Both the position numbers and the translations under genes were made by a program. Shown here one piece after another: positions 1,153 to 4,555 of a stretch of 5,053 bases of DNA (the first letter of the stretch is position 1; every line of letters starts with the position of its first letter). Under the pieces are notes generated by a model. The model was not told the origin of the DNA, searched no databases, and worked only from the letters and a program-made list of their open reading frames with translations. Source of the stretch: a virus (Duplodnaviria > Heunggongvirae > Uroviricota > Caudoviricetes); IMG/VR virus record IMGVR_UViG_2671181111_000008. One strand, 5' to 3'.

Positions 1153-1181
1153 AATATATGCCTTTCAATCTACTTTTGCAA
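1153..1181 (-). promoter_or_regulatory. Candidate late promoter (pR-prime-like), TTGCAA -17- TATATT, overlapping the Q-like stop codon
   Basis: On the minus strand, -35 TTGCAA (1181..1176), 17-nt spacer containing the TAG stop (1172..1170), -10 TATATT (1158..1153). The predicted start near 1146 would give a short transcript ending at the terminator at 1070-1100, the geometry expected of a Q-modified late promoter. Confidence 0.45.
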
Positions 1182-1880
1182 CACTTTGCTTTGAAAATGC
1201 CGTCTTTTTTTTGAACGTGTTCTCATTACAAACAATAAAGCCTCACTATCCAGTCGGTGAAAAATGTGTTTCATTACAACCCAGTGACCAGTAAATGTTT
1301 TGGACCAGTTTTTGGTTGTTACTCCCGCCAGTAATGCCAGCTCCTGATATTCATAACCTTCCCCACCAACCTGGTATTCATAACCTTCCCCACCAAAAAG
1401 TTCTGCTTTTACTGCCTGCGCCGCCAGCCAGATTAATTTTTTCAGGCGTTCCTGCGTTTTCCCTGCAATTTTTCTGGTACCGGATTGAGCATTAAATTCA
1501 TTCCACGCCCACTGTGTTATCGCGATCTGATATTCCCAACAAATACTCCCGCTGTAACACCACAACAACCAGGCTTTATGATGTTCTTCAAGAGACAGAA
1601 CAGCCCGCCGCCACGATGATGTCGAAAACTCAACCGGACTGACCAGAGGAATTGACGTCCCCTTCGCCAGCGATTGCTTTCCCGGGATTGGTGGATTATC
1701 CCGCGTTATCATTTTTCCAGTCACTTCATCGCGGTACCGGATTTTTTTACGCCTGTAACGCCCTGTATCGAACATGGCATTCTCTTGCCAGGCTTCAAGC
1801 TGACCTTTTGTTGCCCCACTCAAATCAGCGGTGGCGATAATGAGCTGCTCACGCACAAACTGTAAATACTGGTTATTCAT
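1170..1880 (-). CDS. Putative late-gene antiterminator (Q-like, about 236 aa), assigned mainly by synteny
   Basis: Long ORF immediately downstream of rusA and upstream of the candidate late promoter, terminator, tRNAs and holin, which is the canonical Q position. The ORF track starts at a GTG (1886); the ATG at 1880..1878 overlaps the rusA TGA stop as ATGA and is the more likely start. I do not recognise a specific Q-family motif, so the function is inferred. Confidence 0.55.
   Translation of the reverse strand: MNNQYLQFVREQLIIATADLSGATKGQLEAWQENAMFDTGRYRRKKIRYRDEVTGKMITRDNPPIPGKQSLAKGTSIPLVSPVEFSTSSWRRAVLSLEEHHKAWLLWCYSGSICWEYQIAITQWAWNEFNAQSGTRKIAGKTQERLKKLIWLAAQAVKAELFGGEGYEYQVGGEGYEYQELALLAGVTTKNWSKTFTGHWVVMKHIFHRLDSEALLFVMRTRSKKRRHFQSKVLQK
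1343..1396. repeat. Tandem 27-bp direct duplication (26/27 identical) inside the Q-like CDS, encoding GGEGYEYQ twice
   Basis: Copy 1 at 1343-1369 (cctgatattcataaccttccccaccaa) and copy 2 at 1370-1396 (cctggtattcataaccttccccaccaa). In frame, giving GGEGYEYQV-GGEGYEYQE in the protein. Confidence 0.9.
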
Positions 1881-2242
1881 GCGCACCCCAGTTCTGTGAT
1901 TTTTATCCCCAGCCGCCCACCAGGAACGAGCTGACCGCGCACAATATTGATTTCATCAAACTGCTCGTCGTCTATAAGTAGTCCAGCATGCGTCAGCGCA
2001 TCCAGCGGTGCCTTCAGGATATTGTCCAGGTCACGACGGCGCTTATCCGGTGGCTCTGCAATAATCTTTATCGCCAGCCTTCCGGACAGGTTTAATTTCA
2101 GTCGCTGCTGGCGAACAATTAGCGCCACATCACGGCGATAACGCTCACCGGCTTTTGATACAAAATATGTGCTGCCACGACGTCGCCAGTAGGTGTTCAC
2201 CGTTGGCGGGTAAGGCAAAACAAATTCTATGCGTTCGGTCAT
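1877..2242 (-). CDS. rusA: Crossover junction endodeoxyribonuclease RusA (Holliday junction resolvase)
   Basis: 121-aa ORF with clear similarity to my recollection of E. coli RusA: PDKRRRDLDN (vs RusA PDRRRRDLDN), LIDDEQ acidic pair, C-terminal GGRLGIKITELG (vs GGRLELTITEMG). ATG at 2242..2240 directly follows the upstream TAA (TAAATG). Confidence 0.9.
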   Translation of the reverse strand: MTERIEFVLPYPPTVNTYWRRRGSTYFVSKAGERYRRDVALIVRQQRLKLNLSGRLAIKIIAEPPDKRRRDLDNILKAPLDALTHAGLLIDDEQFDEINIVRGQLVPGGRLGIKITELGCA

Positions 2243-3581: not shown

Positions 3582-3652
3582 CTGTTTTCTCTGCTGGCGC
3601 AGCAGGTGCCAGTTGTTCAGGCTGACGGATGGATTGTAAACCAGAACGACCA

Positions 3653-3680
3653 GAAAAAACAAAACCCGCCGAAGCGGGTT
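3653..3680 (-). terminator. Rho-independent terminator of the hok transcript (UUCG tetraloop hairpin plus U-tract)
   Basis: Minus-strand RNA: stem aacccgc / gcgggtt (3680..3674 and 3669..3663) closed by a UUCG loop, followed by UUUUGUUUUUUC (3662..3651). Confidence 0.7.
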
Positions 3681-3748
3681 AAGTGCGGGTGCGTTGAGGA
3701 TGCCTGACACATCAGCGGTGGCGAGGGATTTCTCCCCCGCCGGGTCTC

Positions 3749-3904
3749 TTACTCCTCAGGTTCGTAAGCTGTGAAGACAGCGACCTCCGTCTGGCCGGTT
3801 CGGATTCGTACCTCGCAGAGGTCTTTCCTCGTTACCAGTGCCGTCACTATGACGGTTAAACAGATGACGATCAGGGCGATTAACATCGCCTTTTGCTGCT
3901 TCAT
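3749..3904 (-). CDS. hok: Hok/Gef-family type I toxin (51 aa), HokD/RelF-like
   Basis: Translation MKQQKAMLIALIVICLTVIVTALVTRKDLCEVRIRTGQTEVAVFTAYEPEE matches my recollection of E. coli HokD/RelF. Single N-terminal TM segment and conserved Cys. ATG at 3904..3902 preceded by AAGGAG about 9 nt upstream. The 70-aa track ORF is an in-frame upstream extension. Confidence 0.9.
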   Translation of the reverse strand: MKQQKAMLIALIVICLTVIVTALVTRKDLCEVRIRTGQTEVAVFTAYEPEE

Positions 3905-4078
3905 AGCCTGCTTCTCCTTGCCTTTCGGCACGTAAGAGGCTAACCTACATGTGTTCAGCATGGATTGAGCCTCAGATTAATGTTAAGCGTCTTGCAGGAC
4001 GCGTAATGTTAACTGGGGCTTTTCTCTATCTGCCTTTTGGTGTTCATGCCTGAGACAGATAGCCTCAAGCACCCGCAG
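3905..4078 (-). promoter_or_regulatory. hok mRNA 5' leader (tac-like 5' end, 5' stem-loop, upstream translation-initiation region)
   Basis: Minus-strand sequence gcttgaggctatctg...cagatag...agcctcttac...gcaaggagaag...ATG parallels the plasmid R1 hok leader as I recall it. The 5' segment (about 4078..4063) is complementary, with one bulge, to the 3' UTR segment (about 3700..3685), the fold-back arrangement characteristic of hok mRNAs. Confidence 0.5.
3975..4075 (+). ncRNA. Candidate Sok-like antisense RNA region (ends not determined)
   Basis: By analogy with hok/sok, the antitoxin RNA is transcribed antisense to the hok leader, starting near the upstream initiation region and running toward the hok mRNA 5' end. 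The plus strand here carries weak -10 candidates (TAATGT at 3978-3983 and 4004-4009) and the complement of the hok 5' stem-loop. I could not fix a clean promoter or terminator. Confidence 0.3.
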
Positions 4079-4080
4079 TC

Positions 4081-4109
4081 ATTCTACTTAACTAAGATTT
4101 CCCTGCAAA
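4081..4109 (-). promoter_or_regulatory. Candidate sigma70 promoter of hok mRNA (TTTGCA/TTGCAG -16/17- TAGAAT)
   Basis: On the minus strand, -35 TTGCAG (4108..4103), 16-nt spacer, -10 TAGAAT (4086..4081). Predicted start near 4074, just upstream of the gcgggtgcttgaggct leader segment. Confidence 0.5.
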
Positions 4110-4163
4110 CCGTTTTTGTCCGGCACAGTAAATATCCAACTAAACCAATAGCGTTCGCTGTAT

Positions 4164-4343
4164 TTACCGCCAGTATTCAATGCACATGACCGCCATGAAC
4201 ACCCCTAAAAAAAGGGCATTTATATGTCCAAACATTAATATCAAAACATCAATTTTTTCCATATACCTTGCTGTGAAGATGATGGGCATACATGATGCGA
4301 ACAACCAGAACGCAACAAACAAAAACTGCAATGCGTTTTTCAT
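4164..4343 (-). CDS. Possible small hydrophobic (two-TM) protein, 59 aa, in an AT-rich island
   Basis: Internal ATG (4343..4341) of the 72-aa track ORF is preceded by AGGGGGAATA, an acceptable SD about 5 nt upstream. Product MKNALQFLFVAFWLFASCMPIIFTARYMEKIDVLILMFGHINALFLGVFMAVMCIEYWR has two hydrophobic stretches. AT-rich DNA readily produces spurious ORFs, and an overlapping antisense ORF exists. Confidence 0.25.
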   Translation of the reverse strand: MKNALQFLFVAFWLFASCMPIIFTARYMEKIDVLILMFGHINALFLGVFMAVMCIEYWR

Positions 4344-4555
4344 TATTCCCCCTACAATCAATGTGCAATAACATTTAAACACACCTCAATTTGGCCGGAC
4401 ATATAAATATCTAAACCAGAAAAAATCACTTACATAGCGTTACAAACTCTTTAGTCTAAATACTCATCGTAAAACATTCCCCATACTTATCAGTCCGTTC
4501 CGCGCCAGGTAGCTTATTGCCTTATCTGGCAACCTATAATCAGGTTTCCGCTTTT

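Follow-up and report, generated by a model that had tools for sequence, protein, structure and literature searches.

The in-frame mok and hok reading frames of a prophage hok/sok locus: an ordinary arrangement compatible with R1-type translational coupling

The hok/sok locus and the anatomy of its mRNA

The DNA analysed here (the window, a stretch of 5,053 nucleotides) carries on its minus strand a prophage toxin–antitoxin locus of the hok/sok type (Table 1). Its surroundings are those of a lambdoid prophage, with DUF968, RusA and Q genes and then tRNA genes. The Hok protein of the locus is a Hok/Gef toxin of about 50 aa (Pfam HOK_GEF, 81.6 bits; cut-off 22), which tblastn matches to HokD with 100% identity; in the closest E. 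coli genome, the gene is likewise named hokD.

The promoter of the hok mRNA sits immediately 5' of the position at which the Rfam leader match starts (4074). This match, to family RF01794, scores 118.9 bits (gathering score 59; E = 1.4e-27) and covers the full model, 1-157. The 5' end of the mRNA was placed from the promoter together with the start of the Rfam model, and the 3' end from the intrinsic terminator. In the predicted fold of the resulting RNA, the 5' end pairs with the 3' end (-178.8 kcal/mol; z = -7.67 versus shuffled sequences). This long-range contact is made by two elements, tac and fbi, positions 4076-4063 being paired with 3699-3685 in the minimum-energy fold; pairing of the ends through tac and fbi is typical of hok mRNAs. 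The tac element is kept in VT2-Sakai and in K-12 hokC, and the fbi element in VT2-Sakai. The name "tac" for the 5' element comes from the R1 literature (PMC9841398). When a MAFFT alignment of 76 leaders was submitted to RNAalifold, no consensus structure was predicted, probably due to indels that shift the stems.

Table 1. Features of the hok/sok locus, in positions of the window.
Feature	Position	Strand	Remarks
hok mRNA promoter	4081..4109	-	TTTGCA, 17-nt spacer, TAGAAT; sole sigma-70-like site in 3600-4200
Full-length hok mRNA	3656..4076	-	about 420 nt; both ends inferred
tac element	4063..4076	-	GCGGGUGCUUGAGG; at mRNA 5' end; pairs with 3685-3699 in minimum-energy fold
hok mRNA leader (sok/hok leader)	3899..4074	-	Rfam RF01794; Rfam scan
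mok Shine-Dalgarno	3970..3973	-	GAGG, 8 nt 5' of mok ATG; read from sequence
mok frame	3749..3961	-	70 codons + stop; 19-codon extension MLNTCRLASYVPKGKEKQA, then Hok; stop common to hok
Out-of-frame ATG, then TAG	3945..3950	-	3' arm of hairpin around mok start
Conserved motif	3932..3941	-	AGCCTCTTAC; nearly invariant in 76 leaders, with any mok frame
In-frame GTG	3929..3931	-	offset -27; non-conserved start codon
hok Shine-Dalgarno	3914..3918	-	AGGAG, 9 nt 5' of hok ATG; read from sequence
hok	3749..3904	-	51 codons + stop; identical to HokD/RelF (WP_000813254.1)
fbi element	3685..3699	-	CCUCAACGCACCCGC, complementary to 5' tac; pairs with 5' end in minimum-energy fold
Intrinsic terminator of hok mRNA	3653..3680	-	stem AACCCGCTTCGGCGGGTT, then T tract
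Sok antisense RNA	3953..4023	+	predicted, 71 nt; coordinates via alignment to annotated sokW of VT2-Sakai
Putative Sok promoter	3918..3946	+	TTGCCT, 17-nt spacer, TAACCT; 6 nt before start 3953

The mok frame and other upstream start codons

In the list of open reading frames, ATG 3961 opens a single 70-aa ORF (3961..3749, minus strand), and the ATG of hok at 3904 lies 57 nt, or 19 codons, downstream of it and in frame. The first-pass annotation had read both ATG 3961 and a GTG in the leader as sharing the frame of hok within one continuous 70-aa ORF, and the ORF and the GTG (3931) bear this out. The upstream frame has its own Shine-Dalgarno sequence and is open to the hok stop. GAGG, the core of the Shine-Dalgarno sequence that precedes the mok ATG across the survey, is invariant in a 10-sequence alignment, and AAGGAG, before hok, is kept in all three classes of mok frame described below. 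By itself, an open stretch of 19 codons is unremarkable, since its chance expectation, (61/64)^19, is ~0.4.

The 70-aa ORF matches Pfam HOK_GEF at residues 25-66. It has no match to DUF5431 (Pfam) or PRK13720 (NCBIfam), the families of R1 Mok, to which an R1-type Mok scores 140 and 151.6 bits, respectively. R1-type Mok is the product of a 58-nt offset, and the window ORF, with an offset of 57 nt, does not belong to that type; it is instead an in-frame leader of the mokC/mokW type ("Gef leader protein").

There are four ATGs between the 5' end of the mRNA and hok: 4047, 3961, 3950 and 3904. ATG 3950 is not conserved, related leaders reading ACGTAG, ATCTAG or ACATAA at this place, and it is probably a by-product of a CATG...CATG stem. 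ATG 4047 is out of frame, lacks a Shine-Dalgarno sequence, opens an ORF of 12 codons and lies in the 5' stem-loop. Thus, an earlier statement that the sole out-of-frame upstream AUG is followed directly by UAG is accurate within 3902-3961, where ATG 3950 is meant, but leaves out the further ATG at 4047, which lies outside that interval. The position aligned to GTG 3931 differs among leaders (GTG, GGA, ACG, CCG, CGC).

The predicted Sok antisense RNA

As predicted, Sok begins with a 9-nt 5' leader, GUUCAGCAU, which its fold (-31.5 kcal/mol; z = -5.96) leaves unpaired. The leader is complementary to the AUG of mok and its codons 2-3, and precedes a long hairpin and a U tail. The predicted position of Sok agrees with those of the annotated sokW and sokC. 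The putative Sok promoter matches the consensus poorly, scoring below the threshold of the consensus scan, and was placed by position only. Its layout is the same as that of the R1-type locus (TTGCGC, 17-nt spacer, TATCCT). The -10 element TAACCT spans 3941-3946, its first base and the adjoining end of the spacer lying within the AGCCTCTTAC motif, and the -35 element overlaps the hok Shine-Dalgarno sequence on the opposite strand.

Comparison with plasmid R1

A 129-nt R1 leader sequence, used as the query, occurs with at least 99% identity in 2655 plasmids. One of these loci, L010, which carries the published R1 primers and probe (PMC1635323), was taken as the R1 sequence itself. In L010 the ATG of mok (515) precedes that of hok (573) by 58 nt, and a sister record annotates exactly this 70-codon CDS as mok. 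In the published numbering of R1, the mok AUG occupies 116-118 and the hok AUG 174-176, and Mok is a 70-aa leader peptide (PMC9841398). In R1-type loci, then, the mok ATG lies 58 nt before that of hok, mok is out of frame with hok, and its 70 codons end 4 nt before the hok stop. The statement in the first-pass annotation that R1 mok overlaps hok in another frame is upheld by both L010 and the published numbering.

The window and R1 share the order of elements (tac, the mok Shine-Dalgarno GAGG, the mok ATG, GCCTCTTAC, AAGGAG and the hok ATG), a frame of 70 codons, the layout of the Sok promoter and the Rfam family. From GCCTCTTAC to the hok ATG there are 36 nt in each, whereas the stretch from the mok ATG to GCCTCTTAC is 21 nt long in the window and 22 nt long in R1. 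A 1-nt shift of the upstream AUG, with the spacing from the motif to hok unchanged, had been noticed beforehand, and these distances agree with it. The 1-nt difference falls upstream of the AGCCUCUUAC motif. The two differ in their upstream product: R1 Mok is an alternative-frame protein of the DUF5431/PRK13720 kind, whereas the ORF of the window would give an N-extended Hok. Their Hok proteins are 43% identical (BLAST).

An IncFII plasmid locus (L002; NZ_CP128973.1, 544-759) has mok in frame at -57, although its Hok matches that of R1 with 100% identity. The frame change is caused by changes in the Sok recognition loop, which reads ATGTCTGACAAC instead of ATGTCTAGTCCAC. Since L002 is in frame despite its R1-identical Hok, loci very closely related to R1 can also differ in frame.

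Other annotated hok loci

The closest annotated counterpart is mokW/hokW/sokW of the Stx2 phages (VT2-Sakai/Sp5 and 933W), also a lambdoid prophage locus, which is 94.7% identical to the window over 393 nt. Over the 80 nt that run from the mok Shine-Dalgarno sequence through hok codon 3, VT2-Sakai and the window do not differ. In the VT2-Sakai record, hokW (156 nt) has the same stop as mokW (213 nt), which is described as "similar to Gef leader protein", and sokW is annotated as well, in the same position as Sok of the window. The 70-aa MokW is in frame with the 51-aa HokW, and its first 60 residues are identical to the window ORF. The differences lie further downstream: the C-terminus of Hok has four residue changes (VDYESEK in VT2-Sakai, TAYEPEE in the window), and the sequences diverge after the fbi element, hence the terminators are different. 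The position in the prophage also differs, as the window locus adjoins the DUF968-RusA-Q genes. The record of phage Stx2a_F422 contains the same paired annotation ("host cell-killing modulation protein" and "host cell-killing protein"). By experiment, hokW-sokW is a type I toxin–antitoxin system that depends on RNase III and Hfq, and the 51-aa HokW is toxic alone (PMC8621323).

In E. coli K-12 MG1655, mokC (16751-16960; orf69) and hokC (16751-16903; gef) likewise have a common stop and a 57-nt in-frame offset. The 69-70-aa ORF is 75% identical to that of the window, the first six residues (MLNTCR) being the same, and sokC starts 8 nt inside mokC, in the same relative position as Sok of the window. 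However, hokC has 1 nt missing before GCCTCTTAC and 1 nt added after it (20 + 37 nt versus 21 + 36 nt), and owing to this spacing the middle of the extension is read differently from the window. The sokC hairpin is 18 nt shorter than that of the window. Downstream of hokC, IS186 cuts the K-12 copy, which can be aligned with the window only to a point before the fbi element.

K-12 mokB/hokB is R1-like, with an offset of 58 nt. Mok of hokB is a 55-aa alternative-frame peptide and R1 Mok has 70 aa; both are unrelated to Hok. An in-frame ATG at -57 with a Shine-Dalgarno-like sequence is also found in plasmid loci of the srnB and pndA types, which encode SrnB and PndA sequences.

The hokD gene (relF) of the Qin prophage of K-12 encodes a 51-aa Hok identical to that of the window. 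Here, however, the similarity extends only from window position 3918, 14 nt 5' of the hok ATG, to past the stop; the promoter, tac, mok and Sok, all of which lie upstream of 3918, are absent, and relBE is present instead. Because the similarity begins only at 3918, the window carries the locus in its intact, ancestral form, of which K-12 keeps a truncated version.

Survey of mok frames

Mok frames were surveyed in 173 loci: 80 from viral contigs, 80 from contigs of one genome per species, and the reference loci. Hok was located by tblastn, as a search for ORFs by regular expression had missed 23 loci. These loci yielded 103 unique 120-nt leaders, 91 with a recognisable mok, defined as a Shine-Dalgarno sequence and a start codon 45-75 nt upstream of hok. 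The sample is weighted to relatives of HokD and HokC, which are related by descent, so that the counts are descriptive and do not represent independent events.

With this in mind, mok is in frame with hok in 59 of the 91 unique leaders (57 at -57 and 2 at -60), and is R1-like, at -58, in 21. In the other 11, mok is at -56 or -59 and has only 19-20 codons, its TGA overlapping the hok ATG as ATGA. The -56 class (L090, L088, L048, L108, L109, L111, L131, L149, L163 and L165, mostly with the hok ATG at ~601) has a mok of 19 codons, and L166 is a -59 variant with 20. The ATGA overlap is the only layout in which coupling by termination and reinitiation could be possible, and the -56 class is thus the one that may differ in mechanism.

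All three frame classes are found among loci with identical HokD. Nevertheless, in every one of the 89 unique leaders that have a Shine-Dalgarno sequence and an ATG, the frame of the mok ATG runs open past the hok ATG, as against 22 and 17 of the 89 for the other two frames. The non-random feature is thus that the mok frame stays open through the hok ATG; it drifts over all three registers but is always open through the start of hok. The alternative frame used by a -58 mok is not clearly kept open longer in the -58 loci than in the others; in the HokD coding sequence, it is open for ~49 codons in all classes.

The indels that change the frame are single alignment columns. The most visible one falls directly after the mok start codon, in the Sok recognition region, and others occur beside the GCCTCTTAC motif and in the small hairpin that precedes the Shine-Dalgarno sequence of hok. 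Conserved nucleotides (GCCTCTTAC and AAGGAG) are read in different frames, giving ...VPLT... in hokC and ...LASY... in the window. Since the same conserved nucleotides are translated differently across loci, the constraint is on the RNA or DNA and not on the Mok peptide.

Six of the loci (L102, L112, L119, L154, L155 and L156) are identical or nearly identical to those of E. coli or plasmids and lie on short contigs with the labels Veillonella, Acinetobacter, Xanthomonas, Ferruginibacter, Streptomyces and Oscillibacter, most likely because enterobacterial DNA contaminated these assemblies.

Probable translational coupling of hok to mok

Very probably, the window contains an intact hok/sok locus in which ATG 3961 is the start of mok and translation of mok couples that of hok, the frame being irrelevant. 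The anatomy, the offsets, the identity with mokW and the distribution of frames that enter into this explanation are those observed above; coupling, 3' processing and the action of Sok are carried over from the R1 literature. The full-length mRNA would be locked by the tac/fbi pairing until processing of its 3' end frees the region of the mok start. Sok, with its 5' end covering ATG 3961, would block translation of mok and thereby, indirectly, that of hok. When Sok is missing, ribosomes starting at ATG 3961 would read 19 codons to the Shine-Dalgarno sequence and AUG of hok, resulting in hok translation. Whether mok is in the frame of hok would have no bearing on this coupling, and the frame would vary by 1-nt indels; given the 57-nt offset, the mok product would be a 70-aa N-extended Hok, as in the annotated pairs mokW/hokW and mokC/hokC. 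Experiments have demonstrated coupling for R1 and, as is reported of Poulsen et al. (1991), for gef/orf69.

The genetics of R1 provide the basis for this scheme. In R1, mutations in the GAGG of the mok Shine-Dalgarno sequence abolish Hok toxicity, and the mok ATG is required for it. Stop codons in mok have an effect when placed upstream of the hok AUG and none when placed downstream. Translation of mok is therefore needed up to the hok start region only, and the Mok peptide and any further translation are immaterial (PMC9841398). Because the mok ribosome would read through the hok start region in the window as it does in R1, the in-frame layout needs no different coupling, and the logic of coupling appears to be the same as in R1. 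The pattern of frames across loci likewise fits R1 genetics, in suggesting that what matters is the act of translating the upstream codons.

Consequently, the proposal of the first-pass annotation that this locus departs from characterised hok loci, and may use a different coupling, is not supported, because mokW/hokW, mokC/hokC and the srnB- and pndA-type loci are all in frame. Nor is the arrangement unusual: the in-frame state is that of the majority in the sampled loci, and it is R1, the paradigm for an out-of-frame mok, that represents a minority state in the sample. The in-frame arrangement is ordinary and already known, since it has been annotated as mokW/hokW and mokC/hokC for years and is the commonest in the hok loci sampled.

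That an N-extended Hok may be made, as the first-pass annotation suggested, can be read from the sequence itself. A different possibility is that the in-frame layout is itself functional, the 70-aa N-extended Hok accumulating and either being membrane-active or modulating the 51-aa toxin. If so, there would be two proteoforms, and the output of in-frame loci would differ from that of R1. Any ribosome that starts at 3961 and does not stop would be bound to make a 70-aa protein with the whole HOK_GEF domain; moreover, the in-frame state is the commonest among the unique leaders, and the extension MLNTCRLASYVPKGKEKQA is short and basic, which would be compatible with a cytoplasmic N-terminus before the membrane helix. 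However, the extension is not conserved as a peptide, as hokC and the -58 and -56 classes read the same nucleotides otherwise, and all three frame classes are represented among close relatives that have an identical Hok. In addition, the Shine-Dalgarno sequence and AUG of hok are conserved in in-frame loci too, HokW is toxic in its 51-aa form alone (PMC8621323), and the excess of in-frame loci may reflect only sampling and shared descent. A functional layout is therefore considered unlikely, and it is quite doubtful that in-frame loci yield two toxin proteoforms, with the 70-aa form accumulating and membrane-active, and that selection accounts for the excess of 59 in 91.

It is very unlikely that the locus is a decayed, non-functional chromosomal copy of hok, in which the 70-aa ORF would be without consequence. 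Tested chromosomal hok loci of E. coli gave no post-segregational killing (summarised in bioRxiv 10.1101/2025.08.07.668861), and hokD of K-12 is truncated just 5' of the hok Shine-Dalgarno sequence. In the window, however, the promoter, tac, the Shine-Dalgarno sequence and ATG of mok, Sok, the hok Shine-Dalgarno sequence, hok, fbi and the terminator are all intact. Related intact leaders are widespread, since 4031 of 5426 complete E. coli genomes have a match that spans at least 80% of the 401-nt query. The identity of 94.7% is to a working system, and by likeness to hokW-sokW (PMC8621323) the Hok of the window would be toxic and would be suppressed by Sok.

Finally, that the upstream start lies elsewhere, for example at GTG 3931, which is in frame and preceded by AGG, or that hok is translated independently of the upstream frame, is scarcely credible, given that ATG 3961 and GAGG are conserved but GTG 3931 is not, that Sok overlaps 3961 but not 3931, and that the corresponding ATG of R1 is required for Hok toxicity (PMC9841398).

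The pattern of open mok frames may help in annotating Mok, which is hard to call and was left out of the annotation in a 2026 survey of Hok diversity (44,248 homologues). A simple rule suggested by the leaders studied here would be a GAGG Shine-Dalgarno sequence and an ATG 56-60 nt 5' of hok whose frame is open through the hok ATG.

Other features of the window

Directly upstream of the hok promoter, on the minus strand, lies a very hydrophobic ORF of 72 aa (4164-4382), and the sequence around it (4200-4500) is AT-rich, with 35-40% GC. The closest genome has no annotated CDS in the interval from the hypothetical protein gene to hokD.

Two weak matches to isrK and isrJ, small RNA families of Salmonella prophages, occur on the minus strand with 22-27 bits, below the gathering scores. 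One (3659-3740) covers the 3' end of the hok mRNA and its terminator, and the other (1077-1150) is downstream of Q; both are probably terminator-like hairpins.

The Q antiterminator gene (ORF 1170-1886, minus strand) contains a 27-nt tandem duplication at 1343-1396 (2.0 copies, 96% match), which repeats the peptide GGEGYEYQ, and the closest genome annotates Q as frameshifted. The prophage tRNA cluster includes a partial tRNA match (601-655) and, on the minus strand, tRNA-Lys (818-894) and tRNA-Met(CAT) (896-971), and within it positions 657-795 are a run of 139 N, that is, masked or unresolved bases.
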